A stretch of DNA of 64,000 bases, taken from positions 1 through 64,000 of the IMG/VR virus record IMGVR_UViG_3300028048_001497; one strand, 5' to 3'. The notes under the pieces are model-generated. The model was not told where the DNA came from, did no database searches, and saw only the letters and a program-made list of their open reading frames with translations. A program made the translations under genes and the position numbers. This stretch comes from a virus (Duplodnaviria; Caudoviricetes). This document shows positions 7,528 to 60,563 of the stretch, piece after piece (the stretch's first letter is position 1; each line of letters starts with the position of its first letter).

Positions 7528-8414
7528 TGACAAAAGATATTCGACAAAAACCTGAATTGAATAAACAGTATGATTATGATTTAGATTTAAATTGGCGTGA
7601 TGATGGAGACGTTTTAGGTGATGCTTCTATGAATGATTATTTAAAAGGTTATCAGAATGAACCTTATGCTTTCCAACAATGGGCGAAGAATAAGGGAATA
7701 AATACGAAAGTAGCAGGACAAGAAATGATTAATATGCATTTCTATCCTGAATTTTTAGCGGATTACATTCTTACCTTATGGAATGGAACAGATGGTGAAT
7801 TGCAGAATTTTTATGAAGCATTTACACTCCGTTATGATAATAAATTAAAAAAAGCGGTAGCGGATGAAATCGAAAAACTAGGATATAAAGTATACCCGGT
7901 TCTAGTAGATGATAGGGCTTTTTATGCGAAGAAAAGATTTAATAAAATCGTTAAAATGGCAAGTAAAAAAGACGTTCATACAAAATTGAATGTAGCAAAG
8001 AATTTGTTTCAGAATAGTGAAGCATTAAAACTTTGTTTAGGAGAGATTGATGATATAGAAGAAATGGGAATGAAAGTTTCTGCAAAGAGAGTATCAGACC
8101 TATTAGATTATTATCAAGAAATTTTCCCTGAAGATTATGCTATTTGCTTGACACAAGATTTAGTAAATGAAAAGATTAACGATAATGGCTATCAACATTA
8201 TCAAGATTTTGGTATTTCAGATGAAAGTTTAAAAAACATTGAACGTATGATGGATGGAAATCAAGACCCATACGATGCTCCTTATAATGGTGGCAACACC
8301 AATTCAACGGATATGGGATATGATTATATTACAGATATGCGTGGATTTGATGGAGTAAAACCTGAATTGTATGAAGCACCAACGGTTCATTCTAGTTTAA
8401 AAAAAAAAGACTAA
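7527..8414 (+). CDS. Hypothetical, probable head-associated protein (may be extended by a -1 frameshift)
   Basis: TAATG overlap with the upstream gene; ends in an A10 run. Confidence 0.75.
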   Translation: MTKDIRQKPELNKQYDYDLDLNWRDDGDVLGDASMNDYLKGYQNEPYAFQQWAKNKGINTKVAGQEMINMHFYPEFLADYILTLWNGTDGELQNFYEAFTLRYDNKLKKAVADEIEKLGYKVYPVLVDDRAFYAKKRFNKIVKMASKKDVHTKLNVAKNLFQNSEALKLCLGEIDDIEEMGMKVSAKRVSDLLDYYQEIFPEDYAICLTQDLVNEKINDNGYQHYQDFGISDESLKNIERMMDGNQDPYDAPYNGGNTNSTDMGYDYITDMRGFDGVKPELYEAPTVHSSLKKKD

Positions 8415-12698: not shown

Positions 12699-12713
12699 AA
12701 AAAGGTGTGTCTA

Positions 12714-13778
12714 ATGACAAAAAGTGAAATGAGAAAAAAATATTCTATGGAAAATATAGTACGTTCTAAGAACGATTTTTCCTTAGAAGTATATTTTGGT
12801 AATGTTTGTAATTATAATTGTTCCTATTGTTTTGATGCTTATACAAGAAAAGAGCATTGGTCTAATTGGAATAAGGAACAAACAGATAAGTGCTTAAAAT
12901 TTATTGACAGTATAAAAACATTATATGACGTTAATATTTATGGTGGAGAACCTAGTTCATGGAAGTATTGTTTGTATTTTATAGATAATATACGTTCAGA
13001 TGTTCATGTATCTATTATTACCAATGGTTCAAATAAAAAATTCACAAAAGAAGTTTGTGAATTGGCCAAGAAAAACAATAGACAATTGTTATATTGTATG
13101 TCTGTACATTATGAAAAATATTTAGAAGATAAAGAAGCATATATGGATAATTTAAAATATGTATATCATACAATTGAACAATATAAAGATAATGTGGCAT
13201 TAGAGTTCGTTTTATTGTTAGACCAAAAAAATACATATAAATATATGGATTTATTAAATCTCTTATTAAGAGAAGGTAATGAAAATACTTTTTCTGCTAC
13301 GCTTTCTTATATAAGAAGGACTCAAGATGTAGAAGAATGTATTAAAAATTATTGCATGATACCAAAATTAGATAAAGACGTTCAAGAAAAAGCAAAGAAA
13401 TTGTTTTCATTGGATAGATTTAGGATTGCAGAAAAAAATCTTTTTTATCACAGAAAATGCCCACAATTTTATCATCATGCAGAAGTACAGTTTGATGGAA
13501 GATTACTTTCAACAGATTGTCAACAAGGAAGATTATCTAAAAAATCAATATTTGATGATGATTTTGATTTAAAAGATGAACAATTTGTTTGTGAATGTTG
13601 TCAAAAACATGAAAAAAATAATTATTCATGTGAAAAAGTTCATGGTATGTTAAATAATTTTGATAATGTATTTGAATGGTTAAATAGTGATATGTTTGAT
13701 GAAACAATGAATGAAATGAACAAAGAACGCCTGCGTGTGTCTGAATGGGATGATAATAATGAAAAGATTAGTAAGTAA
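12714..13778 (+). CDS. Radical SAM protein with Cys-rich C-terminus
   Basis: CNYNCSYC, YGGEP and ITNG motifs; C-terminal Cys residues. Start at the ATG after AAGGTG. Confidence 0.85.
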   Translation: MTKSEMRKKYSMENIVRSKNDFSLEVYFGNVCNYNCSYCFDAYTRKEHWSNWNKEQTDKCLKFIDSIKTLYDVNIYGGEPSSWKYCLYFIDNIRSDVHVSIITNGSNKKFTKEVCELAKKNNRQLLYCMSVHYEKYLEDKEAYMDNLKYVYHTIEQYKDNVALEFVLLLDQKNTYKYMDLLNLLLREGNENTFSATLSYIRRTQDVEECIKNYCMIPKLDKDVQEKAKKLFSLDRFRIAEKNLFYHRKCPQFYHHAEVQFDGRLLSTDCQQGRLSKKSIFDDDFDLKDEQFVCECCQKHEKNNYSCEKVHGMLNNFDNVFEWLNSDMFDETMNEMNKERLRVSEWDDNNEKISK

Positions 13779-19652: not shown

Positions 19653-21395
19653 TTGAGAAAGAATCATAGAACTGTAAAAGCAGGATATGATGGAAATCTT
19701 GCTAAAAATAGCATTGTAAATAAATCAGATTTGCCAAAAAAAGTACAGGCAAGAATGAAACGTAAAACGGTTCGTGCTGCTACTGGCGCAGTTAGAATGG
19801 GTAATCCAACTTTCTATCAGCCACTATTTCAAACAACAAATATGTTGTTGCCTAGAGATAGACGTGAACGTAATGAATGGTGCAGACATTTTTATCGTAC
19901 AGAACCAATTATTGCAACGGCATTAGATTTACATACGGAATTTCCAATTTCTGATTTAAGCAATATTTGTAGCGACCCATATATTAAAAGATTTTTTGAT
20001 TATATGGCTTTTGATAAATTGGATTTAATTAATTTATTATTAGATATTGGACTGGAATATTGGAAAATTGGTGATGTTTTTCCATTTGGTCAATTTAATG
20101 AATCAGAAGGAATATGGGAAAATTTCACTTTATTAAATCCTGATTATGTAAATGTTACTTCTTCTATTTTTGCAGGGGAACAACAGATTGAATTAATTCC
20201 TGATGACCAGATAACGAATATTATTTCAGGTGGGCCGTCAGGGGAATTTGGTGATTTGTATCGTCAATTTCCTGATGATATAATTACACAAGTTAAAATG
20301 GGAAAGAATATTCAATTAGATAATCGTTTGGTTTCTCATATTGCTCATAAAGCAAGTCCTTATGAGACATGGGGAACTCCATTAATGATGCGTTGTTTTA
20401 AAACGTTAATTTATAAAGATAAATTACGTCAAGCGCAGGACGCAATTGCAAATCGTCACATTATGCCTTTACGTGTAGCTAAAATTGGTACACCAGGTGA
20501 ACCAATGCCAACAACAGAGGATATTGAAAGTTTCCGTGATACTTTGTTGGAAGTCGAAGATGACCCAAATTCATTTATTGTATATCATTATGGCTTATCT
20601 TTTGAATATGTTGGTTCTACAGGAAAAATTCTTCCATTAAATACAGAATTTGATTTTATTCAAAATGAATTAATGACAGGATTAGGTATTACACAAGCTA
20701 TGCTAAATGGTGATGGTTCTGCATATTCCGCAGCAAATGTTGGTGCAGAAGCATTAGCTAGAAGATATATGGCCTATAGACTGCGTTTGGAATCGTGGAT
20801 TAGAAATAAAGTATATAAACCTATTGCAGAAACGCAAGGATTTTATAAGCCTATAAATGGTTCTATTGCGCGTAGATATATGTCTCCAAAAGAAATTAAA
20901 CGTGCTGCTGCAAACAAGGAAATGGAATTAATTGTTCCAAAGATTTTGTGGCAACATCAAGATTTAACTTCAAATCAAACGGTTATGTCTTTTATTCAAA
21001 GTTTAAGGGATAAAGGATTAGTATCTATGACAACAGTATTGCCATTACTTAGTCTTGACCCTGAAACAGAAAAACGTAATTTGGAGAAAGAACGTGGAAC
21101 TGTATTCGATGAAAACCGTCCTAAAACGGGGCCTCTTCCGAATGAAGGTAAGCCAATTGTTAATGAATATGAGACAGGTGATACAATTAGAGAGAATAAA
21201 CCGTCTCGTGATGAAGAAGATAATGAAAATTCATTTGATAGACCAAATACACCAGGAGGAACTCCTAGTGTTGGTAATAATCCTGAAGATTTTGGATTGG
21301 AAACTCATAATGATGTAAAAACATCGTTAGATTTAGATAAATTCTTTAATCGAAGAAGAAACACTATGGTGAATACACGTATAAAAAATGAGTAA
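19653..21395 (+). CDS. Portal protein
   Basis: WCRHFYRTEPIIATALDLHTEFP, WGTPLMMRCFKTL and PLRVAKIG, as in Bxz1-type portals; size and position before the protease also fit. Confidence 0.85.
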   Translation: MRKNHRTVKAGYDGNLAKNSIVNKSDLPKKVQARMKRKTVRAATGAVRMGNPTFYQPLFQTTNMLLPRDRRERNEWCRHFYRTEPIIATALDLHTEFPISDLSNICSDPYIKRFFDYMAFDKLDLINLLLDIGLEYWKIGDVFPFGQFNESEGIWENFTLLNPDYVNVTSSIFAGEQQIELIPDDQITNIISGGPSGEFGDLYRQFPDDIITQVKMGKNIQLDNRLVSHIAHKASPYETWGTPLMMRCFKTLIYKDKLRQAQDAIANRHIMPLRVAKIGTPGEPMPTTEDIESFRDTLLEVEDDPNSFIVYHYGLSFEYVGSTGKILPLNTEFDFIQNELMTGLGITQAMLNGDGSAYSAANVGAEALARRYMAYRLRLESWIRNKVYKPIAETQGFYKPINGSIARRYMSPKEIKRAAANKEMELIVPKILWQHQDLTSNQTVMSFIQSLRDKGLVSMTTVLPLLSLDPETEKRNLEKERGTVFDENRPKTGPLPNEGKPIVNEYETGDTIRENKPSRDEEDNENSFDRPNTPGGTPSVGNNPEDFGLETHNDVKTSLDLDKFFNRRRNTMVNTRIKNE

Positions 21396-25378: not shown

Positions 25379-27058
25379 ATGCTAAAATATCTGGATAGTT
25401 ATCAAGGTTTAGATTCTTTAAAAAATATGAATTTTGATGATTTAAATGGATTAATAAAAGATATAAAAATTTTAATATTAAAACGATGTTCAACAATTGG
25501 CGGTCATTTGGCAACAAATATTGGTAATGTTGAAAGTGTTGTAGTTTTATATCGTCATTTTAATCCTAAGAATGGATATATTGTGTATGATACCGCTCAT
25601 GAAGGTTATACACATAAAATTTTAACAGATAGAAAAAATACTTTTTTAGATAAATTAAAAGTCGGAACGTTGGTAACGCCGAGAGAATCAAAATATGATT
25701 ATGTTGGTTGTTCGCATGGTGGAGTTGGAGCTTCATATTTATGTGGATTTGCCAAAGTAACAGACAAACCATGTGTATTATATGTTGGTGATGGTACATT
25801 AACAAATGGAACAGAATTAGAAGGATTAAACCAAATTGCTATGTTGAAAAGGAATGTTGTTATTGTGGTTAATGATAACGGAATAACAATTATGCCTAGT
25901 TCTGGTGGAATCTATAAACACTTAAATCAAGAATTTTTTAATTCTTTTGGCTTGGATTATATTGAAGTAAAAGATGGATATAATTTAAAAGAATTGGATG
26001 AAGCGTATGCTAAAGCGTTTTTTGCTAACCATCCAATTGTTGTACATATACATACTGTAAAAGGTAAAGGCTATATTTATTCAGAAAAAAATCCTACAAA
26101 ATGGCATTTTTGTGATGAAGGATTTAATGTATTAAATGGTGATAATCATTATGCTGAAGGAAAATTATTGGATGCATTAGACGATACTGTTTCTGATATA
26201 ATGAAACAAAATAAGAATGTGTATGCAATTTCTACTTCTATGCCAGATTTGGGATTTGGAAAAAAAGTACAGTCATTTAAAGATAGATATTTTGATGTTG
26301 GTATGGCAGAAGAACATGCATTTGTGGAGTCTTGTGGAATTTCTCTGGCAGGTAAGTACACTATATTAGGAACATATTCTACGTTTTTTCAAAGAATGTA
26401 TGATATGATAATGACTTGTGGAGCATTTGATAAAATAAATATGACTATTTTGTTACATGAAAGTGGAATAAAAGAAAATAACATATTTCAAAATGGAATG
26501 TATGATATTTCTATTATCAACCAGTCACCACAAATTGTAGAATTGTGTCCAATTACAATAAATGATATTGTATCAATGTTATCTTATACAGTATCCCATG
26601 ATGGTATTTACGTTATTCGTATTCCAAATGGAATTGAAGAAATAAACGATGAAAAAATATATTTTGATAAAAATAATTCTATGAAAATTCTTTCATCGGA
26701 TAATACAGATTTGGTTTTTATTGGGGTTGGAAAATCTATTTATGAGGCTAAAAAGTATTCTGAAAAATATAAATCAACATTGATTTGTAGTACATCAAAT
26801 CAATTAGATAAAGAAATATTGGATAAATTTAAAAATTCAGAATTAATTGTTGTATTTGAAGATGGAATTGTTAGCGGTGGATTTGGAGATAAAATTAATA
26901 GATATTTTTCTTTAGATGATGTTAAAGTTTTGCCTGTAGGAATATCAAATTATAATTATTTTGGCAATCCAAATGATAAGAATATAGAAGATATTTATAA
27001 AGAAAATGATATTGATTTTGACTCTATTTGTAAAAAAATTGATAGTGTGATAAAATGA
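25379..27058 (+). CDS. dxs: 1-deoxy-D-xylulose-5-phosphate synthase-like ThDP enzyme (divergent)
   Basis: GGHL, YTHKILTDR, GDG...NDN ThDP motif, HTVKGKGY, DVGMAEEHA, YSTFFQRMYD. Confidence 0.85.
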   Translation: MLKYLDSYQGLDSLKNMNFDDLNGLIKDIKILILKRCSTIGGHLATNIGNVESVVVLYRHFNPKNGYIVYDTAHEGYTHKILTDRKNTFLDKLKVGTLVTPRESKYDYVGCSHGGVGASYLCGFAKVTDKPCVLYVGDGTLTNGTELEGLNQIAMLKRNVVIVVNDNGITIMPSSGGIYKHLNQEFFNSFGLDYIEVKDGYNLKELDEAYAKAFFANHPIVVHIHTVKGKGYIYSEKNPTKWHFCDEGFNVLNGDNHYAEGKLLDALDDTVSDIMKQNKNVYAISTSMPDLGFGKKVQSFKDRYFDVGMAEEHAFVESCGISLAGKYTILGTYSTFFQRMYDMIMTCGAFDKINMTILLHESGIKENNIFQNGMYDISIINQSPQIVELCPITINDIVSMLSYTVSHDGIYVIRIPNGIEEINDEKIYFDKNNSMKILSSDNTDLVFIGVGKSIYEAKKYSEKYKSTLICSTSNQLDKEILDKFKNSELIVVFEDGIVSGGFGDKINRYFSLDDVKVLPVGISNYNYFGNPNDKNIEDIYKENDIDFDSICKKIDSVIK

Positions 27059-27837
27059 AAATTCCTAAAATGACTTTTTATATAAATTCTAATTGTAATT
27101 TAAATTGCAAAGGTTGTGCTCACTTTGCTCCATTAGCTAAACCTTGGAAAATAAAATTAAAAGATTTTAAAAATGAGGTAAATTTAATATATAATTTATG
27201 TGAACCTGAACAGATTTCAATATTAGGTGGAGAACCATTATTACATGATGAATTGGATGAGATATTGAAATATGCAAGAAAAATATTTACAAAGCAAAAA
27301 ATTTCATTTGTAACGAATGGTATTTTGTTGAATAAGTATTTTGATAAAGATTTGTTTAAATGTATTAAAGAAAATAATATTAATATCCGATTTTCTGTAT
27401 ATCCTATTGATGTAAATTATAATTTGATTTTTAAAAAATTAGATTTATTAAAAATTTCATATGATACAGAAAATGATTTTGTAAATAATAAAAATGAGCC
27501 GTGGTTTCATTATCATTATCACAAAAAAGATAATAAAGTAGCTGAGTATTGTTATATACGCGATGCTTTAGATAGTCCACAGGTTTATAATTATAAAGTT
27601 TTTGGATGTGCTACGACTGCATATATTTGTCATTTTAATCAATATTTTAATGAAAATTTTCCATTAGAAAAAGATGATTATTTGGATTTGAAAAATTGTT
27701 CTATTGAAAATTTTGATAGGTTTATTAATAACTTACATGAGAATGGAACATCTTTTTGTAAAAATTATTGTAGTTATGAGACTAATGATAAATGGAAATG
27801 GGGATTAACAGAAAGGAATAAAAAAGAATGGACATAA
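27055..27837 (+). CDS. Radical SAM protein
   Basis: CNLNCKGC, LGGEPLLH, VTNG; ATGA overlap with the dxs-like gene. Confidence 0.88.
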   Translation: MKIPKMTFYINSNCNLNCKGCAHFAPLAKPWKIKLKDFKNEVNLIYNLCEPEQISILGGEPLLHDELDEILKYARKIFTKQKISFVTNGILLNKYFDKDLFKCIKENNINIRFSVYPIDVNYNLIFKKLDLLKISYDTENDFVNNKNEPWFHYHYHKKDNKVAEYCYIRDALDSPQVYNYKVFGCATTAYICHFNQYFNENFPLEKDDYLDLKNCSIENFDRFINNLHENGTSFCKNYCSYETNDKWKWGLTERNKKEWT

Positions 27838-49442: not shown

Positions 49443-50363
49443 ATGGAATTTCATTCATTAAGTGAGATAAAGAAAATATATGAAGAAGAAGATAACTTAG
49501 GTGCACTTGATGATTTATTATATAGTGCAGTAGATGCCATAGTTACGAATTCAAAATATGCAAAGTTTTTTTATGAAGAATATCCATTTGAAGATGGTAG
49601 AGAAGCGATTAATCGGTGTAATTATGATGATTTAAAAGAATGTACCATAGATACTTATGCTCAATATGTAGCATATTCAAAAGATGATGAGATAATAAAA
49701 GAATATGAATATTCTATTTATGGTTCAACGAATGTAGAAGATTTAGTAGAATTTTCACCATATTGTTTATATGAATTAATTAAATCTGTAGATAAAGACT
49801 TCAATAATGATTTTGAAAAAAAAACCTATTCTGATTATTTTGAACGAAGATTATTTAGAAATAAATATAAAACGATACAAAATGATAGTGATGAAAATAT
49901 AGATAGTGCAAAAGAATTAGATAAAATAAAAGATAATATAGGGGATAAACATAATATCAATTTTGATTATGATTATGAAGATAGAGATTATGCATTTATC
50001 TATTTAGATGGTAAAATTATAGAAGGTAAAAGTGGGTAGACACACGCACAGGTATTGGAAGATTATATGAAAAAAATAAATAGAGAAGAAGATATACCTG
50101 AAGATTATAAAGATGGTGGAGATATAGAAGGAAGTAGACCTTCTAATGACCGCATTAATAGATTATTAGGAACGGAAAACAATGCTTATGGAAATGTGAT
50201 AGATAATATGGCATTAATAGAAGTATTAGAAAATGTATCCGAACAAGAAATAGCGGATGCGTGTAAAAAGCAGTTAAAAGTAGATAAAGTATATATGGTA
50301 AATAGAAATACGAATACAGATGTAGTAAAAAGATTAGCAAAGATAATAAGGATGGATGTATAA
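49443..50363 (+). pseudogene. Acidic paralog 1 interrupted by in-frame TAG at 50037-50039 (pseudogene or readthrough)
   Basis: ORFs 49443..50039 and 50055..50363 are in the same frame; EGKSG*THAQVLE aligns with EGKEGQTHAQILE of the next paralog. Confidence 0.85.
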
Positions 50364-51316
50364 TGAATATAGAATTTCAATCACTACAACAAATAGAAGA
50401 TTTTTTTAAAGAAAATAATAACAATTATTTTAATTCATTTAAATATACAGTAGACTTTTTATTTGATGAAGATAATTTTGAAAAATTTTTTGAAGATGAA
50501 TATATGATAGACATATATGATGAACAAAATGAAGATATATGGGAAGATTTACAAAATGCAGATATATCAGAATTTGTTGATTGGCTAGTAAATACGAGTA
50601 AATATAGTGATGGAAAACTTTCGGATGAATATGCTTATGTATTAGAAGAAGAAATACCTGATAATGAATATTCTTTTACATATGAATGTTTAGAAGAATT
50701 GATTGATAGTTTTGCGCATGAAAATTCGTATGTAGCAGATTTTAATAAAGCGAAAAAATCATATATGGATTTTTTTGAACGCAATGCACTTCATGATGAA
50801 TATAATATGGTAGATGATTATGATGAAGATAAAAAATCCATTAATAGTGCAGAAGAATTAGATGAAATAAATGATAGTGTTGGAGATACGCATAAAATAG
50901 ATTTTAAGTATGATTATAAAGACAGAGATTATGCGTTTATTTATGTAGATGGTGAATTAATTGAAGGAAAAGAAGGACAAACACACGCACAAATATTGGA
51001 AAACTATTTAATAGATAATGATAGGGAAGATGAAATTCCTGAAGATTATAAAACAGATGATGGAGATATAGGTGGTAGTAGACCTAGTAAAAAGCGTGTA
51101 GAAAGATTAGTAGGGAAAGAAGATGCTGATGTAGCTTTTGGTCATGTAATAGATAATGTAGCATTAGTAGAAATTGTAAATGGCGTTTCAGAAGATACAG
51201 TAGCAAAAACGTGTATGAAAGAATTAAATATAGATAAAGTATATTTTGTAAATCATCAGAATGAAGTAGTCAAGAGATTAGCAAAAGTTGTTTTATATAC
51301 AAAGGAGAATGTTTAA
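50363..51316 (+). CDS. Acidic paralog 2 (unknown function)
   Basis: Shared C-terminal domain RDYAFIYVDG..THAQIL..GSRPS..AFGH..DKVY..KRLAK. Confidence 0.8.
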   Translation: MNIEFQSLQQIEDFFKENNNNYFNSFKYTVDFLFDEDNFEKFFEDEYMIDIYDEQNEDIWEDLQNADISEFVDWLVNTSKYSDGKLSDEYAYVLEEEIPDNEYSFTYECLEELIDSFAHENSYVADFNKAKKSYMDFFERNALHDEYNMVDDYDEDKKSINSAEELDEINDSVGDTHKIDFKYDYKDRDYAFIYVDGELIEGKEGQTHAQILENYLIDNDREDEIPEDYKTDDGDIGGSRPSKKRVERLVGKEDADVAFGHVIDNVALVEIVNGVSEDTVAKTCMKELNIDKVYFVNHQNEVVKRLAKVVLYTKENV

Positions 51317-52249
51317 ATGGCAAAGATTGTTTTTAATACAATGAGCGAAGCGAAAGATTATTTAGATTCAGATTTTAATGAATTTTTAAATTCACCTTAT
51401 TGCATTACAGAAGGAGGTATTCGTGATGAATTAGAAGAAAATTATCCAACATGTAGAGGTGACGATATAATGAACGAAATCGCTTATGAAGGATTAAGTA
51501 ATTTAGATGTCAATGATTATATTGATGATATTACAAATAATGACTTGTTATTAGATGAATACAAAAATTGGCTATCTGATTATAATACAGAAGATGAATT
51601 AGATGTTTCTAGCGACTGCGTTTCTGAAATGGCAGAGGAACTAACAAGCAAAACGGATATTGAAGAAAATTTTGATAAAGCATTGAATAGTTATGTATCT
51701 TATTGTGAGCGTAATTATTCAGGTTTTGGTGAAGAAGATGACGATATAACCCTAGATTTAGAGTATAATGAAGAAGATAATTCTGTTGATGATTGGTCAG
51801 ATTTGGCAAAAGTAGATGATAAAATAGGGGAACAAACAAACGTTGAATTTGGAACAAGGTTAGATTATGATACTCGCGATGGTGCGTTTGTATATATAGA
51901 TGGTGATGTAGCCTATGGCGAAGAAGGAAAAACACATGGGCAGATTTTAGCGGATTACATGGAAGAACATGGAAATGAAGATATGATACCAGAGGATTTA
52001 AAAGGTGATGATATAGCAGGAAGTAGACCATCGCAGTCACGTATGAGACGTTTGGTAGATACAGATAATGTAGCGTTTGGGCATATTGTAGATAATATGG
52101 CGTTTGTTGAAGTTTTGGCAACAGGAGCAAATGAAGATGATGTAGCCAAGGCTTGTAAGAAACAATTAAAAGTAGATAAGGTTTATTTCTTAGATAATTA
52201 CAATGATGCAGTTAAACGTTTGGCTAAATGGAAAGTTTATACGAAATAA
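51317..52249 (+). CDS. Acidic paralog 3 (unknown function)
   Basis: Same conserved C-terminal domain; AAGGAG SD. Confidence 0.8.
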   Translation: MAKIVFNTMSEAKDYLDSDFNEFLNSPYCITEGGIRDELEENYPTCRGDDIMNEIAYEGLSNLDVNDYIDDITNNDLLLDEYKNWLSDYNTEDELDVSSDCVSEMAEELTSKTDIEENFDKALNSYVSYCERNYSGFGEEDDDITLDLEYNEEDNSVDDWSDLAKVDDKIGEQTNVEFGTRLDYDTRDGAFVYIDGDVAYGEEGKTHGQILADYMEEHGNEDMIPEDLKGDDIAGSRPSQSRMRRLVDTDNVAFGHIVDNMAFVEVLATGANEDDVAKACKKQLKVDKVYFLDNYNDAVKRLAKWKVYTK

Positions 52250-52336: not shown

Positions 52337-52553
52337 GTATTTCTTTTGTAGATGTTCATAAAGGTCGTGAAATAATGAATGAAGATATTTACATTATGGA
52401 TATAGATGAATTAAAGGAATTGTTAGGCGATAATTTTAATAATTGTTTAAATGATATTAATAAAGAATCTAATTAAAGTGTATTATTATGATTATAGTGA
52501 TAAACAAGTAACGCGACTTGCTAAATTAAAAAGTGTATGAAAGGAAAGATTTA

Positions 52554-53732
52554 ATGAAACGTTTAGGAACTGATAAAATGACAGTTGTATATTCACAAGA
52601 GCCTTTTCCAAAAGATGAAATGAAATCTATATTTTTAGCTGGGCCAGTACCTAGAAAAGAATATGAATTATCATGGAAAAATGAAGCATTAAAAATTTTG
52701 GATTCAATGGGATATAATGGTGTTGTATATATTCCTGAAAATAGAAATCCTGAACAAAAAGAAGGAAGCTTTGATTTGCAAGCGCAATTGGATTGGGAAT
52801 ATACTTGTATGTGTGCTTGCGATGCTATTGTATTTTGGATTCCTAGAGAAATGCGTTCGGATTTTGAAATGATTGGATTAACAACAAATGTAGAATTTGG
52901 TCGTTTTCTTAATTCAAATAAACTGTTTTGTGGTTGCCCTGATGAAGCACCAAGAATGGAATATTTGAAATTAATTTCAAGAGATAAGTATGAGTGGCAT
53001 AATACACTTGAAGATACTTTGAAATCTGTGGTACAATATTTAGGTAGAGGAATATATCGAGAAGATGAAGAAATAAAAATTCCTTTGCATATATACAAAT
53101 CAAAACAATTTCAGAATTGGTATAAACAACAATTAAATGTAGGAAATTATTTAACTGGTTTTAATATGGAATATGAATTTGTTATGCCAAAAGCAAAACA
53201 AATGTTTTTAGAGATTTTTCATCCATCGGTTTATATAGCAAAAGAAGATAGAGTAAAAGATAATGAATTTGTAGTGGCAAGAACAGATATGAGTTATATT
53301 CTTGCCTATTATAAAAAAGATGATATAATGGATTCAGAAGTTGTTTTATGCGAAGAATTTCGTAGCCCAATAAATAATAATGAAGAAATGGTTTTTGAAT
53401 TGCCTGGTGGTAGTTCTCTTAATCCAAACGATGATGTTCTTTCGACTGCTTCTAAAGAATTAGAAGAAGAAACAGGGTTAAAATTAGATAAAAATCGTTT
53501 TAAACAGGTAGCATTGAAACAAAGCGCTGCTACATTGTGTTCTCATAAGATAGCTTTGTTTAAGGTAGAATTAACAGAAGAAGAAATCAATTCGCTTAAA
53601 AAAGATAATAGTATTCATGGCGTAATCGAAGATACAGAACAAATTCATTTACATGTAATGAAGGTATCTGAAGCATTGAATATGGTAGATTGGACAAATA
53701 CAGGTATGATATTAAATGGAATAAAGGAATGA
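52554..53732 (+). CDS. Nucleoside 2-deoxyribosyltransferase-like domain fused to Nudix hydrolase
   Basis: SIFLAGP..SW, WE....DAIVFWIPR, TTNVEFG; Nudix box ELPGG...ASKELEEETG. Start at the ATG after AAGGA. Confidence 0.85.
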   Translation: MKRLGTDKMTVVYSQEPFPKDEMKSIFLAGPVPRKEYELSWKNEALKILDSMGYNGVVYIPENRNPEQKEGSFDLQAQLDWEYTCMCACDAIVFWIPREMRSDFEMIGLTTNVEFGRFLNSNKLFCGCPDEAPRMEYLKLISRDKYEWHNTLEDTLKSVVQYLGRGIYREDEEIKIPLHIYKSKQFQNWYKQQLNVGNYLTGFNMEYEFVMPKAKQMFLEIFHPSVYIAKEDRVKDNEFVVARTDMSYILAYYKKDDIMDSEVVLCEEFRSPINNNEEMVFELPGGSSLNPNDDVLSTASKELEEETGLKLDKNRFKQVALKQSAATLCSHKIALFKVELTEEEINSLKKDNSIHGVIEDTEQIHLHVMKVSEALNMVDWTNTGMILNGIKE

Positions 53733-53736
53733 AATT

Positions 53737-54846
53737 ATGTTAAAACATTTAAATTTTCATATTAATCAGATTTATTTAATGATGGGGTATCAATGTAATT
53801 TAAAATGTAAATATTGTATTGAACACGATGTAGTAAATCATGCGATGCCAAAGGAAATTAATCCGCAGATTATTGATTGGATGATAGATATTGCTCAAAA
53901 TATAGGTGGTTTTAATGTATTATTTTGGGGTGGTGAACCACTTGTATATTTTGATACTATGAAAAAAGTAGTTGAAATGATAAAAGAAAAAGACAAAGAT
54001 GGTTTGATTACTTTTTCTATGGTAACGAATGGCAAATTGATTAATGATAAAACAATTCCGTGGATAAAAGAAAATTTAAAAGGATTTGGTTTGTCATGGG
54101 ATGGAAGAAATTCTGAAATCACACGTGGATATGATGTAATGAAATCCAATAAAGAAAATATATTTAAATTAGATGATTGGGGTTTTGATGGAGTTTTTTC
54201 TTCCTATACTTATCCGAAAGATTATTTGGATGATTGTTGGGAAATAGAAAAAGAATATGGAAAACCGATTAATATTCATGTGGAAAATTTAATGCAGTAT
54301 GATACACTACCAAATCCTAAGTTAAAAGAGTTTGATGAAGGTAAGTTCTTTCAACAAATGAGAGATATGTGTGATGAGTACGCATATTGTTTTAGGAATC
54401 ATGCTACAATTAGTAATCCAAAATATGCTGAATGGATAAAAACAGAAATATCTTATGTTAGTGTGGATAACAAAAAACCAATGCGTTTGTTCTGCGGTAA
54501 TGGTGGAGAAAATGTAAATTTGGATTTACAAGGTAATTTGTATTGTTGTCACGGTGATACAGAATCAATGGGGACAATTAATGATAATTACTTTGATGTA
54601 TTAAAAAACATTAATGACCATGATAAGACAGTTCAACATGGTATAGATGGATGTAATGAATGTCCTGTACAACCATTGTGTAAAAATGCTTGCCCAAAGA
54701 TGCCACAAAGTTCACGTGATGAATTTTATTGTAGAATGGCTACATTGAGATATTATCCAATTATGGAATTAATGAATGAAATAAATGAGATTAAAAACGC
54801 AGAAATGCAAAAAGACTTTGAATTTATGAAAAACGCAAATATTTAA
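53737..54846 (+). CDS. Radical SAM/SPASM-domain protein A
   Basis: CNLKCKYC, WGGEPL, VTNG; SPASM CGNG...GNLYCCH...CNECPVQPLCKNACP...YC. Confidence 0.92.
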   Translation: MLKHLNFHINQIYLMMGYQCNLKCKYCIEHDVVNHAMPKEINPQIIDWMIDIAQNIGGFNVLFWGGEPLVYFDTMKKVVEMIKEKDKDGLITFSMVTNGKLINDKTIPWIKENLKGFGLSWDGRNSEITRGYDVMKSNKENIFKLDDWGFDGVFSSYTYPKDYLDDCWEIEKEYGKPINIHVENLMQYDTLPNPKLKEFDEGKFFQQMRDMCDEYAYCFRNHATISNPKYAEWIKTEISYVSVDNKKPMRLFCGNGGENVNLDLQGNLYCCHGDTESMGTINDNYFDVLKNINDHDKTVQHGIDGCNECPVQPLCKNACPKMPQSSRDEFYCRMATLRYYPIMELMNEINEIKNAEMQKDFEFMKNANI

Positions 54847-54860
54847 AGGGGATAAATAAT

Positions 54861-55439
54861 ATGCTAAAAAAGGTTGCAGAAGAATTGAAACAGATTGATA
54901 CAGTAGAGCAATTAAAAAAAGTTTTATCTGATAATGATTGGACTACGGATGAATTAATGGATTATATTGATGACACATGGAAAGCTGATAGTGCGCTTAA
55001 AGATTGGTTTATGACTTTTAAAGGTTTGGACGATTTTTGTGATGAAGCGACAGTTAAAGGTTATATCAATTTTTTGCTCTCTGATAGTGAAAATTATGGA
55101 TATGTAAAAGATGCCATCGAACAGGTTGGATTACCACAAGTTCTTACAACAGGTGATGATATTAATGTATCTGATGAAGTGGCTAAATATTTGATTGGTT
55201 GTATTGATAATGGTAAGTGTTATGATTATCTATCAGATGATATAGATTTTTATGTAGAAAAAACATCAAAAATTATGGATGATATGTATCAGTATGTTAG
55301 TGAATATGATGCGCAAATAGATGATGGTTCTACAAAATATACAAATGAAGAATGGGATAATAAAGTAAATGAAGATTATCAAGATACAATTTGTTCAAGT
55401 GATACAATGATGGGAGTCGCAAAAGAATTGTTTGGTTAA
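54861..55439 (+). CDS. Acidic hypothetical protein (MLKKVA start)
   Basis: AAGGGG SD; D/E-rich; N-terminus loosely resembles the acidic paralogs. Confidence 0.7.
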   Translation: MLKKVAEELKQIDTVEQLKKVLSDNDWTTDELMDYIDDTWKADSALKDWFMTFKGLDDFCDEATVKGYINFLLSDSENYGYVKDAIEQVGLPQVLTTGDDINVSDEVAKYLIGCIDNGKCYDYLSDDIDFYVEKTSKIMDDMYQYVSEYDAQIDDGSTKYTNEEWDNKVNEDYQDTICSSDTMMGVAKELFG

Positions 55440-55446
55440 TATAGAG

Positions 55447-55478
55447 AAAAAGAGAAGTTGAAAGTGCTTCTCTTTTTT
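55447..55478 (+). terminator. Intrinsic terminator
   Basis: AAAAGAGAAG/CTTCTCTTTT. Confidence 0.7.
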
Positions 55479-55518
55479 GATATAATATGAATATATAGCA
55501 TTTTGAAAGGATAAAAAT

Positions 55519-56610
55519 ATGCGTAATTATTTAAAAACAGATATATCTACAATTTTTATTATGTTGGGACATGAATGTAATATGAATTGTAAATATTGTT
55601 TGCAACATGATGTTGTAAACGTGGCTTTAGGAAAAGAAATTAATCCTGATATATATAATTTTATTAATGATATTGCAAGAAATCAAAATACAGATTTAGG
55701 ATTACAATTTTATGGTGGCGAACCATTAGTGTTTTTTGAAAAGATAAAAAAATTTATTGATGGTTTAAAATCACGTAATATGTCTAACAACGTATACTTT
55801 ACTATGATTACAAATGGAAAATTGTTAAATGAAGAAAAAGTAAAGTATTTAAATGACAATTTTTCTCATGTAACAATTAGTTGGGATGGAAGAAATTCTA
55901 AAATTACACGTGGGTATGATGTTATTAAAGAAAATAAAGAAAATGTTTTCAAATTAAAGAATTTTTCTTTTTCAGGTGTATTATCTTCTTATAATTATAT
56001 AAAGGATTATTTGGAAGATTGTGAAGAAGTAAATCGAGATTATGTAGAGAATTATCATGGTCATACATTGTATTTTAATGTTGATGAACTATTAGATGTT
56101 AATCTGCAAAATCAGGATTTGAAAAATTTCGATTATAGCAAAGTACAAGAACAAATGGTATCATTATGTGAAGAATATCGGTTATATTTTCAAGAGAATG
56201 AACAAATATCTGTAATAAGAAAAAAGTTTATTGAAGAAAAAATTGGATATTTAAGAAATGCTATCAAAACAAAATCATTTGCACCAACTAGAGATAGATG
56301 TGGTAATGGCTGCGAAGTATTAAATATGGATTTACAAGGGAATTTATATAAATGTCATAATACAGATACAAAAGTTGGATGTATTATAGATAATTATTTT
56401 GATATATTAAAAAATGTATTTGCTTTGGATATGGCAGAAAAAAATTCTAGTAAATGTGATGATTGTATTGTACAAATTATGTGTAGAAATGGTTGTCCTT
56501 TGGTTAAAGATAAAGCTAGAGAAGAATACTATTGCAAAATGGCTATGAGTATGAACTATCCGATAATGCAGTTAATTAAAATCTTGGGTGGTGTTGTAGT
56601 AAATGAGTGA
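55519..56610 (+). CDS. Radical SAM/SPASM-domain protein B (paralog of A)
   Basis: CNMNCKYC, YGGEPL, ITNG, SWDGRNS; SPASM CGNG...GNLYKCH...CDDC...CRNGCP...YC. Confidence 0.92.
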   Translation: MRNYLKTDISTIFIMLGHECNMNCKYCLQHDVVNVALGKEINPDIYNFINDIARNQNTDLGLQFYGGEPLVFFEKIKKFIDGLKSRNMSNNVYFTMITNGKLLNEEKVKYLNDNFSHVTISWDGRNSKITRGYDVIKENKENVFKLKNFSFSGVLSSYNYIKDYLEDCEEVNRDYVENYHGHTLYFNVDELLDVNLQNQDLKNFDYSKVQEQMVSLCEEYRLYFQENEQISVIRKKFIEEKIGYLRNAIKTKSFAPTRDRCGNGCEVLNMDLQGNLYKCHNTDTKVGCIIDNYFDILKNVFALDMAEKNSSKCDDCIVQIMCRNGCPLVKDKAREEYYCKMAMSMNYPIMQLIKILGGVVVNE

Positions 56611-57496
56611 AAAAGATGTAAAGTTTAGATGTGAAATAACAAATAAACCAAATGGCATTATTACTCCAACAAAATTTAGAGATATAAGAACAGAAAAACC
56701 TGAAAATAAAACTATGAAACGCCAAGATTTGCTAGATATAGCAAATGCTTTGGCTAAATTAGAGAATTACAAAACCCATGTTAGTAATTGTAATTGTACT
56801 CCAATTATTGATTGTCAAACGATTAGATGTCAACAGTTGTTTAAAGGTGCATATGACGAAGAAAGATTAAGTCATGACTTATTAAGTTATGCTCGTTGGA
56901 ATGGTGATAATTCTTTTCCTTATCCGAGAGGCCCAGTACAAAAATATTTGCCAAATGGTAAAAAAAATCCAGAACATAGGTTGAATACAGAAAATGGTAA
57001 ATATAATGATTTTGAATATAAAGTAAACATAGAATTGTGTAGGAAAAATGGTGCAAATTGGGTATACCCAGAAAATCCGTTTACAAAAGAAGTAACGTAT
57101 GGTGTAACGGCTTATGTAAAACAATATATTAAAGATAGAGATTATAAATATGATACGACACCAAAACCGTGGAAACCGTGTCAAAAGATAAAGTCAATTA
57201 GTGATATTTTAAGTTGTGAGAAAATATCTTGTGAATTAACAACATGTCAATTGGTTTTATGTCAAAACAGTAATGCTTGTCAAACATGTCAATCGGTTAA
57301 AGCATGTCAAATATGTCAAACATGTGAAGCACAATGCGTATGTCAATCTTGTCAGTTATGTCAAGAACAAGATATGTATAATAACTGTTGCCAAAAAATA
57401 TCTTGTCAATCACAATGCACTTGTCAGTCTTGTCAATCTTGTGAAAATATTTCTTGTCAAGCATATGTAGATGATGGTAAAGACCTTACGAATTAA
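56603..57496 (+). CDS. Cys-Gln repeat protein, candidate radical SAM substrate
   Basis: Overlaps the rSAM B stop; NCNC and CQ near the N-terminus; 22 Cys, mostly CQ/CE, in the last ~105 aa. Confidence 0.75.
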   Translation: MSEKDVKFRCEITNKPNGIITPTKFRDIRTEKPENKTMKRQDLLDIANALAKLENYKTHVSNCNCTPIIDCQTIRCQQLFKGAYDEERLSHDLLSYARWNGDNSFPYPRGPVQKYLPNGKKNPEHRLNTENGKYNDFEYKVNIELCRKNGANWVYPENPFTKEVTYGVTAYVKQYIKDRDYKYDTTPKPWKPCQKIKSISDILSCEKISCELTTCQLVLCQNSNACQTCQSVKACQICQTCEAQCVCQSCQLCQEQDMYNNCCQKISCQSQCTCQSCQSCENISCQAYVDDGKDLTN

Positions 57497-57554: not shown

Positions 57555-57869
57555 ATGGAACAACAAGAACAATCAAAAGTATCAAGATTTTTTCATAATG
57601 TAATGTCTGTTGATGAAACCAGAGTTTCTGTTTTAATGATAGGCTTTATGGTTTCATTAATTTTTGGTGGATATATGTACTTAACTACAGGTGCTTTAAG
57701 TCAAGTTTGGGCAGATATTGTTGAAACATTGATTTTTGCAGTAGCAGGTATTAATGCAGTTAATAGTTTAGTTGGTGGTAATAACAAATTAGGTCAGATG
57801 TTAAGAAGTTCTCAAAATTCTGTTCCGCCAGTTCCACCTGCAATTCCTCCAAGAGAAGAAAAGAAATAA
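57555..57869 (+). CDS. Small two-TM membrane protein, holin-like
   Basis: GAGGTG SD; two hydrophobic segments and a charged C-terminus. Confidence 0.5.
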   Translation: MEQQEQSKVSRFFHNVMSVDETRVSVLMIGFMVSLIFGGYMYLTTGALSQVWADIVETLIFAVAGINAVNSLVGGNNKLGQMLRSSQNSVPPVPPAIPPREEKK

Positions 57870-57935: not shown

Positions 57936-58736
57936 ATGAATACGAAATGTCCTTATTTAGAAATTCAATGTGAAAATTTAAAGTGTGATTGTGTTAAATA
58001 TAAAGCATATGTAGATGCTAAAAATTCTGAAATCTTTCAAAAAGTTATGGAAGAAAATGGTTTTGATACATCACTTCCTGATTTTGATTTAATGATGTCT
58101 ATGCAAAAATCATTTGCTAGTCGCATGAGAAAAATGGAAGGATTAACAAAAAGAGAAATAGATAAATGGATAGACCAATATTTAGTTTGTATTGAGGACG
58201 AAATTAGAGAAGTCAGGGAACATTTAGATTTGTACGGTGGAGAACCAAAGTATAAATCAGATGTGGATAAAAACTTAGAGTTAAAAAAAGAAGTTATAGA
58301 TATACTTCATTTTATGATGGAACTGTTTATTGTTGGAGACGCAGATAAAGATATAATTAAGAAAAACTATTGTGACGAATATCATATTGGTTGGATTAAA
58401 AACGATAAAGATTTGATTGCAGAAGCATATGATAGACAAATTATTACACTACCTAAATATTTGAATACATATGAAGATTCTAGAAAGGATATTACAGTAT
58501 TAAAAGCAAGTTGTCGTTTATCTGATGCTTGTGCACTAGTAAGACAACAAATTTCATGGAAACATTGGAAAAAACCGAGCGATGTACTTGATTACGATAA
58601 GTTATATCATGCTTATGCAGTTGTTTTTCATGAATTTATAAATCTTTGTATTCTTACAATGGATGAAAAAGAAATTAAGGATATTTATGTAAATAAGAAC
58701 GTTGAAAATATTCTTCGTCAGAAGTATGGATATTGA
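57936..58736 (+). CDS. Dimeric (all-alpha) dUTPase-like NTP pyrophosphatase
   Basis: EDEIRE, KEVIDILHF, WKHWK, YVNKNVENILRQKYGY. Confidence 0.82.
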   Translation: MNTKCPYLEIQCENLKCDCVKYKAYVDAKNSEIFQKVMEENGFDTSLPDFDLMMSMQKSFASRMRKMEGLTKREIDKWIDQYLVCIEDEIREVREHLDLYGGEPKYKSDVDKNLELKKEVIDILHFMMELFIVGDADKDIIKKNYCDEYHIGWIKNDKDLIAEAYDRQIITLPKYLNTYEDSRKDITVLKASCRLSDACALVRQQISWKHWKKPSDVLDYDKLYHAYAVVFHEFINLCILTMDEKEIKDIYVNKNVENILRQKYGY

Positions 58737-58829: not shown

Positions 58830-60563
58830 ATGTCAGGTGCATACAAGATGTTGCAAGGCGGATTAGTTTCTAATTACTTCCCATATAACTCAAAGAGAGC
58901 GGAACAGAAGGATATTTTATCTTCGTTGGATAAAATCTATTCATATGGAAATAAGTACCGTTATATCGTCATAGAAGCCGGTACAGGCATTGGTAAATCG
59001 GCTATTGCTAAATCTATTTCAGGCAAAGAAGGTAATTGCTATCTTTTGACTGCAACGAAACAATTGCAAGACCAGTATATTACTGATTTTGGCGATATGG
59101 GTGCAAAAGCAGTAAAAGGTGCAGTCAATTATGAGTGTTCTCGTGATGAAGGTATGCCATGCTCGAATGGTGAGTGCAAATTCACAAAGGGTATTTATAA
59201 TGAGTGTACATTGTCAGGTCAATGCCCATATTATAATGCAAAGAAAGAAGCAGAATCGTCAGAAATGTATGTGACTTCTTATGCTTATTTTCTTCGTGTG
59301 TCTCGTAAATTTTTGCCTGGTGGTGATTATCGAGCAAAATTCTCTAAACGTAATGCAATTATTGTAGATGAATGTCATATGTTAGAGGACCAGCTTCTTA
59401 ATTGTGCAGGTTTTACTCTTTCTGCAAAAAAGATGAATGAACGTTACATGATGAATCATGGGTTGGATTTCAAAGAGCTTTGTCTTTATAATCGTAGATT
59501 GAATGATGGTGAAGAAGAAAAGAATTTGGAATGGGTTCATTTGGTTGATAGTATTATCATGCGTAAAATTATGACGATTGATAAGCAGATTCAATGCGTA
59601 AAAACAGGCAATCGTAGTTTGATGACTGCGGATGAATTGAGTGAGCTTGAAGATGTGGATTTGATGAAATTATCAAATCGGAAAGAAGAACTTGTTCGTC
59701 TGCATGAAAAAATTCAAGGATATTTCCTTTCTGAAAATAAAGATAATTGGATTATGTCTGTGAAAGATAATGTTTTGTCTTTAAAACCAATTGATATAGA
59801 TGGTTTGTTTAAAAAATTGATTGATGGATGGTCTAATAGAAAAGTTGTATTTATGTCTGCAACAATTCTAGATAAGGTTGGTTTTTGTAAAGATATGGGG
59901 ATTAAACCAGATGAAACGTGTTTTATTACACGTGATGGCACGTTTGACCCTGAAAAATCTCCTATTGTGTATGACCCTATTGGTTCTATGAGTTATAAAA
60001 ACCTTCCTGCTACTATGCCATATATTATCGAAGAAATTAAAAAAATTATGGCTATGCATCCGAATGAGAAAGGTATTATTCATACTTCTACGTACAATAT
60101 TGCCAAACAGATTACAGAAGCTATTCATAGTGATAGATTTGTAGTGCGTACTGTTGGAGAATCGAATGAATCCTTGTTTAAATATCATGCAACGTCAGAA
60201 AAACCAACTATTTTAGTTAGTCCTTCGTTAATGGCAGGTGTTGATTTACATGATGATTTGAGCAGATTTCAGATTATTGTTAAATTGCCATATATTTCTC
60301 TTGCAGATGAACGTGTAAAACGTAAAATGCAGAAAGATAAGAAATGGTATATATGCAAAATGCTTAGAAATTTGGTTCAGGAGTGCGGTCGTAGCACTAG
60401 AAATGAAGCAGATTGGTCTGTTACGTATATTTTGGATAATGCATTTGAAACGGTTATGAGATATAATCAAAAAATGTTACCACAATCATTCAAAAAGCGC
60501 ATTGTTAATGTAAATGATTTTGATGTAGAAGAATATGAAAGCAGGATGAAGAATGCTAGATAA
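58830..60563 (+). CDS. DinG/XPD-family Fe-S DNA helicase
   Basis: EAGTGIGKS, LQDQY, KG..NYEC and Fe-S cysteines, VDECH, MSAT, GVDL, QECGRSTRNEAD. Confidence 0.9.
   Translation: MSGAYKMLQGGLVSNYFPYNSKRAEQKDILSSLDKIYSYGNKYRYIVIEAGTGIGKSAIAKSISGKEGNCYLLTATKQLQDQYITDFGDMGAKAVKGAVNYECSRDEGMPCSNGECKFTKGIYNECTLSGQCPYYNAKKEAESSEMYVTSYAYFLRVSRKFLPGGDYRAKFSKRNAIIVDECHMLEDQLLNCAGFTLSAKKMNERYMMNHGLDFKELCLYNRRLNDGEEEKNLEWVHLVDSIIMRKIMTIDKQIQCVKTGNRSLMTADELSELEDVDLMKLSNRKEELVRLHEKIQGYFLSENKDNWIMSVKDNVLSLKPIDIDGLFKKLIDGWSNRKVVFMSATILDKVGFCKDMGIKPDETCFITRDGTFDPEKSPIVYDPIGSMSYKNLPATMPYIIEEIKKIMAMHPNEKGIIHTSTYNIAKQITEAIHSDRFVVRTVGESNESLFKYHATSEKPTILVSPSLMAGVDLHDDLSRFQIIVKLPYISLADERVKRKMQKDKKWYICKMLRNLVQECGRSTRNEADWSVTYILDNAFETVMRYNQKMLPQSFKKRIVNVNDFDVEEYESRMKNAR

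Follow-up and report, generated by a model that had tools for sequence, protein, structure and literature searches.

Radical SAM/SPASM enzymes encoded beside a Cys-Gln-rich protein in a relative of Bacillus phage G: a candidate system for thioether stapling of a full-size phage protein

Introduction

Several radical S-adenosylmethionine (SAM) enzymes of the SPASM type form thioethers on Cys-rich substrates, and they are the closest described comparison for the locus reported here, in which two radical SAM/SPASM genes, rSAM1 and rSAM2, lie close to the gene for a protein rich in Cys-Gln pairs (the CQ protein). The locus is found in positions 1 to 64,000 (the window) of the IMG/VR virus record IMGVR_UViG_3300028048_001497. 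PapB makes many repeated thioethers from Cys to Asp/Glu side chains in the CX3D repeats of PapA (freyrasin), which is a short peptide. QhpD is the classical protein-scale precedent, because it staples a real protein subunit, QhpC, the gamma subunit of quinohemoprotein amine dehydrogenase, with Cys-to-Asp/Glu thioethers, including a link from Cys to the gamma-carbon of Glu. CteB of Clostridium thermocellum (5WGG/5WHY; TIGR03974) forms thioethers on the SCIFF ranthipeptide CteA, a peptide of about 45 amino acids (aa) with six Cys, and the substrate Cys of CteB is bound to an open auxiliary cluster. Other SPASM enzymes carry out different chemistry; anSME (4K36-4K39; TIGR03942) oxidises one Cys or Ser in a C/S-x-P/A-x-R motif of a full-length protein, and the multiple cyclophane synthase ChlB (9GM3) forms C-C cyclophanes on aromatic residues. 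In concept, the nearest of the known systems is that of CrpC and CrpA in Methanococcus voltae, in which CrpC puts ranthionine links in the 28.8-kDa Cys-rich protein CrpA, as reported from mass spectrometry in September 2026 (PMC13692751).

Such chemistry has thus been described for archaeal and bacterial proteins, and no phage description was found; full-text literature searches gave no paper on a radical SAM-modified phage protein of this kind. A sequence-only reading of the window had known of no described phage system like this one. No phage case was found here either, but radical SAM stapling at the protein scale has a precedent in CrpA/CrpC (PMC13692751).

Results

The core of the locus is a pair of overlapping genes on the + strand. 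The gene for rSAM2 (55519-56610), an enzyme of 363 aa recognised by PF04055, Fer4_12, its invariant Cys and its AlphaFold2 (AF2) fold, overlaps by 8 nucleotides (nt; ATGAGTGA) the gene for the CQ protein (56603-57496; 297 aa), which is marked by its Cys/Gln composition and its orthologs. rSAM1 (53737-54846, + strand; 369 aa), recognised by PF04055, Fer4_12 and a PapB-like NCBIfam match, is 43% identical to rSAM2 over 356 residues (E 2e-105). The sequence-only reading had described two paralogous enzymes of this type and the overlap of the second with a 297-aa gene, and the open reading frames (ORFs) lie where it had placed them.

The CQ protein contains 28 Cys (9.4%), the highest content among the 58 long ORFs of the window, for which the mean is 2.0%, and 22 of the 28 are followed by Gln or Glu as compared with 14% expected (binomial P ~3e-14). 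The Cys spacings are mainly 3 and 5, and CxxC and CxC dominate. The protein, encoded throughout on the + strand, begins with a Cys-poor, leader-like N-terminal module (residues 1-62; 56603-56788), delimited by alignment and hhalign, with a helix (DLLDIANALAKLENY) right before an NCNC motif at residues 62-65. N62 precedes the first Cys block (CNCTPIIDCQTIRCQ; residues 63-77, 56789-56833), which is kept in all family members and has C63, C65, C71, Q72 and C76 invariant. A Cys-poor insertion follows (residues 78-192, 56834-57178), which has a single Cys, belongs to the long-form lineage only and is absent from the relatives P0004-P0008 and P0129. The remainder (residues 193-297, 57179-57496), defined by Cys pattern and codon analysis, is a ladder of C[Q/E] pairs with the conserved end CENISCQA..DGKDL, and it is the presumed modification site. 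Residues 193-285 hold 22 Cys, 19 of them followed by Q or E, so that the uneven Cys distribution noted in the sequence-only reading was confirmed, and the C-terminal tract has only 2 aromatic residues in 105.

The smallest CQ family member has 67 aa and 4 Cys and the largest has 297 aa and 28 Cys; the megaphage relatives measure 181-297 aa. The N-terminal module is present even in the 67-aa and 106-aa relatives. Within its ~60 residues, a helix of the type L-x-E-L-x-x-A-x-x-K-L-E-x-Y ends about five residues before N-C-(G/N/D)-x-C, and the near-invariant columns are N17, A49, L53 and N62. Using hhalign, the module was matched with 97% probability to the N-terminus of a small-phage protein (L018) in which a CQ tract is joined to a Hint domain. 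One relative of 244 aa (P0130) carries an independent Cys-free insertion of ~55 aa, unrelated in sequence and at a different ladder site from that of the window protein. Because Cys-poor insertions thus occur at two positions in two lineages, the ladder appears to tolerate interruption and to be modular. At 21 of 38 invariant Cys/Gln columns of four orthologs the synonymous codons differ, which suggests that purifying selection acts on the protein, for both Cys and Gln. A microsatellite or chance-ORF artefact was ruled out by the weak tandem repeats and the synonymous codon changes. With its conserved N-terminus, variable Cys/Gln core and a gene adjoining that of the maturase, the family resembles an oversized precursor of a ribosomally synthesized peptide with post-translational modifications (RiPP). 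Family searches of the locus found no protease or cleavage motif for the CQ protein, and it matched no PHROG or Pfam structural family.

The linkage between enzyme and CQ protein is the strongest evidence for a functional relation. Wherever the upstream flank of a CQ homolog is long enough, an rSAM2 ortholog (62-85% identity) lies directly upstream, either overlapping or at most 6 nt away, and downstream lie a protein with two transmembrane segments, a dUTPase_2-like gene and a helicase, on contigs of up to 333-404 kb. We scanned 79 IMG/VR loci in six frames, of which 75 had enough downstream sequence. A Cys-dense C[Q/E]-repeat ORF was found right after the radical SAM gene on the same strand in 53 of the 75 loci, with two such ORFs in tandem in 51, and just upstream of the radical SAM gene in 2 further loci; elsewhere in ~967 kb of six-frame sequence there were only 2 CQ-type ORFs. 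This conserved linkage was the check that the sequence-only reading had itself proposed, and it came out clearly in favour of the association. Because CQ ORFs adjoin the radical SAM gene in so many loci and almost never occur elsewhere, we consider, with good confidence, that the two proteins form a maturase-substrate pair. Loci with no CQ ORF mostly have more distant enzymes, some together with acidic Cys-Asp-repeat proteins. As a side observation, such repeat proteins (CDCSSDCDC…GDDGDGDG) lie upstream of distant radical SAM genes at L015:4865-5350, L070:5309-5977 and L075:5386-5979, and L015 belongs to a Sporomusaceae genome.

The rSAM2 family comprises at least 276 protein clusters and occurs in 436 IMG/VR stretches and 312 species-genome stretches. 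In 50,697 phage records, DNA and protein searches found no match to the cassette or the CQ protein, and for rSAM2 nothing under 1e-20, with only ~25%-identity matches at 1e-6. With the CQ protein as query, a pattern-based search of viral contigs gave no match, and a CQ profile search of 1.84 billion representatives gave only 6 matches. The megaphage CQ family thus appears narrow as HMMER sees it, and the link to the small-phage CQ proteins needed hhalign. In Bacillus phage G, whose host is aerobic, neither enzyme nor substrate was found. The cassette is therefore accessory within G-like phages, and the idea that it is a core gene set of these phages was ruled out, since phage G is without it.

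Both enzymes exceed the cut-offs of PF04055 (39.6-51.1 bits against 29.5) and Fer4_12. In rSAM2 the CX3CX2C motif (C20/C24/C27), which in this superfamily serves the SAM-binding [4Fe-4S] cluster, is invariant among 62 relatives, as are seven SPASM Cys (C261, C279, C313, C316, C322, C326 and C339). These match the SPASM pattern CX9-15GX4C ... CX2CX5CX3C ... C (C261...G274...C279, C313-x2-C316-x5-C322-x3-C326, C339), which in the SPASM subfamily houses two auxiliary [4Fe-4S] clusters; the Pfam SPASM model matched no protein of the window. An eighth Cys, C265, is present in the CGNGC of rSAM2 orthologs, while rSAM1 has CGNGG and the wider family has Tyr at that place. The N-termini of rSAM1 and rSAM2 lie only ~15-20 residues ahead of CX3CX2C. 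Since the profiles of maturase families that carry a RiPP recognition element (RRE), an N-terminal domain of about 80-95 aa, align only from position ~75-95, and CteB only from residue 95, both phage enzymes lack an RRE. The AF2 model of rSAM2 (pLDDT 92.9) had CteB (5WGG) and anSME (4K36) as its best and equally good full-length fold matches (template modelling (TM) scores 0.62-0.65). The predicted fold is that of a SPASM peptide- or protein-modifying enzyme, and it leaves the chemistry undecided.

Compared with the described systems, the phage enzymes stand closest to thioether formers on Cys-rich substrates. PapB (NF047865) is the top NCBIfam match of both enzymes, near end-to-end on an RRE-less profile of 330 positions, with 103.5 and 107.8 bits (rSAM1 at 108; E 1e-29), followed by CcpM, the SCIFF maturase and QhpD; each of the four makes thioethers on substrates rich in Cys. 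The PapB scores are nevertheless far under the cut-off of 340, and the acceptor spacing CX3[D/E] fails through the period-5 blocks of the CQ protein. CteB is the best match among proteins of solved structure (7.5e-19), but its residues 1-94, which form the RRE, have no counterpart in the phage enzymes, and TIGR03974 gives 75-79 bits against a cut-off of 425. Matches to QhpD (TIGR03906) reach E 1e-18 to 4e-20; QhpD differs in having an N-terminal extension, in making three links as compared with the ~20 proposed here, and in belonging to an enzyme-maturation pathway with a dedicated protease and a flavoprotein. The archaeal, cellular CrpC/CrpA system resembles the viral locus in that a SPASM radical SAM gene stands beside that of a full-size protein whose N-terminus is free of Cys and whose C-terminus is repetitive and rich in Cys, with C-x-x-Q/D, and in the seven SPASM Cys with an open iron site on auxiliary cluster I (PMC13692751). 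In contrast to the phage enzymes, CrpC has an N-terminal RRE; its family model TIGR04463 scores 33.5-37.7 bits on the phage enzymes against a cut-off of 525, and CrpA has a 17-residue repeat instead of C[Q/E] in periods 3 and 5. Because every score is far under its cut-off, rSAM1 and rSAM2 lie outside the PapB, CcpM, SCIFF and QhpD families. As for substrate recognition, ChlB, an RRE-less SPASM enzyme of ~372 aa, was crystallised with the leader region of its precursor, so that leader recognition with no RRE has a precedent. ChlB differs in its cyclophane chemistry on aromatics, of which the CQ tract has almost none, and cyclophane formation was rejected as unlikely for the CQ protein for this reason.

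The interaction of rSAM2 with residues 1-100 of the CQ protein was also modelled. The complex scored 0.45 as compared with 0.00 for the best of three controls, with a contact agreement between runs of at least 39% and a partner pLDDT of at least 42. In a benchmark, 58 of 80 solved complexes scored 0.45 or more, as did 2 of 110 mismatched pairs, and among those that reached this score, scores of 0.60 or lower belonged to only 7 of the 80 solved complexes and to both mismatches. The prediction thus lends weak backing to docking of rSAM2 on the CQ protein.

rSAM1 occurs together with the gene of an acidic 192-aa protein (54861-55439, + strand) and with a CQ insertion of ~110 aa in the window and in L010-12 and L019; the short-form loci L002, L006 and L020 have none of the three. 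Because the carriers form a single clade, this shared occurrence counts as a single evolutionary event and supports a functional tie only weakly. In a quick IQ-TREE tree, rSAM1, rSAM2 and the L017-type enzyme grouped in a single clade (SH-aLRT 100), in which a long stem leads to rSAM1; this fits a duplication inside the megaphage lineage as the origin of rSAM1. The sequence-only reading had presented the system as a twin one; two enzymes are indeed present here, but twinning is not intrinsic, because rSAM2 alone is universal and rSAM1 is confined to the insertion-bearing sub-lineage. The 192-aa protein matched no Pfam, NCBIfam or PHROG family, contains 23% D+E, and its orthologs (72% identical) are confined to loci with rSAM1. 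As a Cys substrate it is improbable and was set aside, since its Cys are not kept in the L010 ortholog.

Related cassettes were also found in phages and prophages of ~40 kb. In these, tape measure and Dit are followed by a ~207-aa protein that ends in NCNCDCGDD, the tail fibre and the radical SAM gene, and then by CQ-A (ending in CNCDCGDDGG), CQ-B (ending in CNCSNCDCGDDGG), an ORF of Hint-like type, more ORFs that include a second radical SAM gene, and the endolysin. In L047 and L016 the cassette is directly 3' of a PHROG tail-fibre gene. The tag CNCDCGDDG(G) ends three proteins of one small phage, the tail-module protein, CQ-A and CQ-B (L047:3601-4224, 7103-7402 and 7412-7816), and a counterpart of the tail-module protein in L016 (3579-4214) bears a tag of the same type. 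These three like-tagged chains beside a fibre gene may belong to a common assembly or may share a recognition signal. In L018 (7119-7970) the reading frame of the CQ tract continues into a Hint-type (intein/Hedgehog-like) domain (CNCSYNCGGT-CFVKGTLVLMADN), and a Hint-type domain lies 3' of the CQ tract as a separate ORF at L047:7813-8208 and L016:7780-8148, with Pfam matches under the cut-off, which hints at autoprocessing or transfer of the C-terminus of the stapled peptide. The prophage hosts are strict anaerobes (Acidaminococcus, Megasphaera, Phascolarctobacterium, Succiniclasticum, Selenomonadaceae and similar), which is in keeping with enzymes that are oxygen-sensitive and with crosslinks that need to be non-reducible. 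Among the cultivable strains with a prophage copy of the small-phage cassette are Acidaminococcus fermentans WCA-389-WT-5B and Megasphaera sueciensis TMW 2.2488.

The window makes up the first 64 kb of a contig of 174.5 kb with a completeness of ~35% (CheckV) and a low GC content of ~28%. Because its portal protein (19653-21395) is 67% identical to that of Bacillus phage G and its DEAD_2 helicase (58830-60563, + strand, assigned by family searches) is 40% identical to the phage G helicase, the contig comes from a gut/rumen-type relative of phage G, the largest cultured phage, with a genome of 497 kb. The cassette is located between a gene for a nucleoside 2-deoxyribosyltransferase-like and NUDIX protein (52533-53732) and genes for a dUTPase_2/MazG-like protein (57936-58736) and the helicase, all on the + strand and assigned by family searches. 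Pfam, NCBIfam and PHROG searches found no transporter, peptidase or RRE near the locus, in agreement with the sequence-only reading, which had noted no adjacent transporter, leader peptidase or obvious RRE. Directly after the CQ gene lies that of a 104-aa protein (57555-57869, + strand), recognised by its hydrophobicity and conserved position, with hydrophobic segments at residues 24-44 and 51-73 and a charged C-terminal tail. It had been called holin-like; the two transmembrane segments agree with that description, but no family match, including to holin families, was obtained in Pfam, NCBIfam and PHROG, and no endolysin lies nearby. This protein is kept across distant megaphages at 49-81% identity, and its gene is 3' of the CQ gene in all G-like loci and is also present in L017, which has no CQ gene there; it is a possible part of the system.

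Several other features of this phage and its relatives were observed. The contig is unusually rich in radical SAM genes, with eight in 174 kb, of which four encode cassette enzymes and four encode shorter non-SPASM proteins with only weak viperin-, MoaA- or HxsC-like matches, some within glycan-type gene clusters (examples in the window at 12705-13778 and 27055-27837). A second cassette with the same logic lies past the window end (L014:3644-7242, contig 67644-71242); two divergent radical SAM/SPASM genes encode enzymes of 350 and 354 aa, matched best by PapB in NCBIfam and also by a CXXX-repeat maturase family, and lie after the gene for a 910-aa protein with no family match and before that for a 470-aa S/T/N/G-rich protein whose end is KCVCNCNFCSC..ACAC..WC. 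A seemingly similar layout of a helix followed by CxC also ends this 470-aa protein and a tail-module protein of the small phages. In some related megaphage contigs, IS605 OrfB/TnpB (Cas12f-like) insertions break the gene order 3' of the cassette (L008:10699-11767 and L007:16144-16612). Upstream in the window, a tandem family of acidic paralogs (49443-52249) contains a single in-frame TAG (50037-50039). Read as Gln, it joins the ORFs 49443-50039 and 50055-50363 (EGKSG-Q-THAQVLE, compare EGKEG-Q-THAQILE in the adjacent paralog), and TAG terminates only 2 of 49 long + strand frames of the window, so that this codon is either a nonsense mutation or a case of suppression or recoding of TAG. Recoding affecting the genes of the locus was ruled out, since all of them end in TAA or TGA and none in TAG. 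For the 192-aa ORF, a relationship to these acidic paralogs was likewise rejected (BLASTP E 0.68).

Discussion

On balance, we lean towards the view that rSAM2 is the dedicated maturase of the product of the overlapping downstream gene and that it staples this protein with thioethers, a virion role of the product being the weakest step of the proposal. The rSAM2 and CQ genes are kept as a translationally coupled pair across G-like megaphages, and, given the pairing, thioether formation would by analogy with the nearest families have slightly better than an even chance. In the proposed mechanism, rSAM2 would dock on the N-terminal helix of its substrate with no RRE, as ChlB does with its leader, and the C[Q/E] ladder would be threaded through the active site, where 5'-deoxyadenosyl radicals would link the sulfur of Cys to a carbon atom in a nearby residue. 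The simplest acceptor would be the conserved Gln/Glu, in the style of QhpD or PapB (ranthionine), and a link to the alpha-carbon (sactionine) would also be possible. The 33-kDa protein would thereby gain up to ~20-28 thioether staples that cannot be reduced. The diverged duplicate rSAM1 would probably serve a subset of sites or the altered, insertion-bearing substrate. The product would be a rigid appendage or fibre component of the virion, proof against reduction and proteases; this would suit phages of strict anaerobes, where disulfides are unreliable.

Several findings weigh against this proposal. If the Gln at +1 were the acceptor of its own Cys, the ring would be unusually small, and the Cys-acceptor spacing is not fixed across both the period-3 and the period-5 blocks. 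The CxxC spacing is also a classical metal-binding pattern. All curated family scores of the enzymes are far under their cut-offs, and the fold and size of anSME fit rSAM2 as well as those of CteB do. AF2 gave no usable model of the CQ protein itself (pLDDT 36 with an 8-row alignment); an Atlas model was equally poor, with no feature matches. In L017, a syntenic 500-kb phage of higher GC content, the radical SAM enzyme (47% identity) and the two-transmembrane protein are kept and an extra 255-aa radical SAM enzyme lies upstream, but no CQ gene stands between the enzyme and the two-transmembrane protein (L017:6001-7571, a gap of 116 nt); this is the chief weak point of the pairing, and the substrate of this phage may lie elsewhere or may have been lost. 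Finally, the cassette of the present phage is outside the tail module, and the slot between tail fibre and lysis genes in the small phages is a common moron site.

Other explanations account for parts of these observations. The same pair of proteins could be joined by another chemistry, in which the ladder Cys are oxidised or edited, by formylglycine formation as in anSME, by epimerisation or by another radical edit, and no thioethers are made. anSME is a structural match equal to CteB with the same RRE-less architecture of ~365 aa (TM 0.65 both ways), acts on a full-length protein, and has a profile that aligns end to end with the phage enzymes; moreover, C265 of rSAM2 orthologs is spaced in a way that we take to be that of the fully ligated auxiliary cluster I of anSME. 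We nevertheless regard this explanation as improbable. The C/S-x-P/A-x-R motif is absent from the 297-aa CQ protein, the eighth Cys is unconserved in the wider family and in rSAM1, so that seven Cys are conserved in the phage family as compared with the eight fully ligating SPASM Cys of anSME, TIGR03942 gives only 49.7-58.1 bits against a cut-off of 349, and the best sequence matches are thioether formers. We judge it similarly improbable that the ladder is an unmodified metal or iron-sulfur module, comparable to metallothioneins, polyferredoxins or the metal-lined needles of some phage fibres, with the enzyme acting on another substrate or using the CQ protein as a cluster or electron donor. 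The dominance of CxxC and CxC, classical ligand patterns, and the enzyme of L017 with no adjoining CQ gene are in line with such a module, but the rSAM/CQ adjacency and overlap are maintained across very divergent phages in the style of maturase and precursor, the N-terminus is conserved and leader-like, and family members go down to 67 aa with 4 Cys. Gln after Cys, moreover, is not known to characterise metal sites. In favour of the module, the CrpA study's authors suspect a metal-related role of the modified protein (PMC13692751), and metal binding and stapling can coexist. A mere coincidence of neighbours, with a low-complexity ORF following a radical SAM gene, is effectively refuted by the 53 of 75 loci as compared with 2 background ORFs in 967 kb, by the synonymous variation at conserved Cys/Gln codons and by the 8-nt gene overlap.

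A further alternative allows the thioethers and concerns the role of the product. The stapled protein could be cargo instead of a virion part, either a bacteriocin-like agent released by lysis or an intracellular effector against the host or competing phages, and we hold this to be somewhat unlikely, although it is the most serious of the alternatives. In the megaphage the cassette lies among nucleotide-metabolism and replication genes and beside a small two-transmembrane protein, the slot from tail fibre to lysis genes in small phages often holds morons, short CQ family members are of RiPP size, and the cassette is accessory within G-like phages. On the other hand, this locus and the related loci show no linked signal peptide, transporter, immunity gene or leader peptidase, a tail-module protein of a small phage ends in the CNCDCGDDG tag of the CQ proteins, and the second cassette pairs its enzymes with a 470-aa S/T/N/G-rich protein that ends in a Cys knot. 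The sequence-only reading had taken the product to be probably a virion fibre or receptor-binding protein; the tail context stands for the small relatives, where the cassette follows a tail-fibre gene, but not for this phage. A role of the stapled CQ protein in a virion appendage or fibre is therefore rated as possible and somewhat short of probable, because the megaphage cassette sits among nucleotide-metabolism genes. The most far-reaching version, in which phages of strict anaerobes build a thioether-stapled virion appendage whose Cys-Gln ladder is welded, possibly between chains, with a Hint autoprocessing domain attached or adjacent, is speculative and on present evidence unlikely; interchain welds would be possible because two CQ proteins and a tail protein end in the same CNCDCGDDG tag.

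In conclusion, we describe a conserved pair of an RRE-less radical SAM/SPASM enzyme and a Cys-Gln-rich protein as a candidate protein-stapling system of phages. Prophage copies in cultivable gut anaerobes (Acidaminococcus and Megasphaera) make the idea directly testable. If stapling by thioethers is true, the protein-scale ranthionine crosslinks known from CrpA/CrpC would extend to a second, RRE-less family with a denser and simpler C-Q code, and the pair would offer a compact enzyme and tag for protein stapling. If a stapled appendage is true, it would give viruses their first structural protein crosslinked by enzymatic radical chemistry, with more staples (~20-30 links) than any other protein known, the links serving as a non-reducible substitute for disulfides, and it would suggest how virions of anaerobe phages come by a disulfide-like stability in reducing environments. 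If the pairing is as we infer, viruses would use RiPP-type radical chemistry on full-size proteins and, as judged from the 436 IMG/VR stretches, would do so not rarely.

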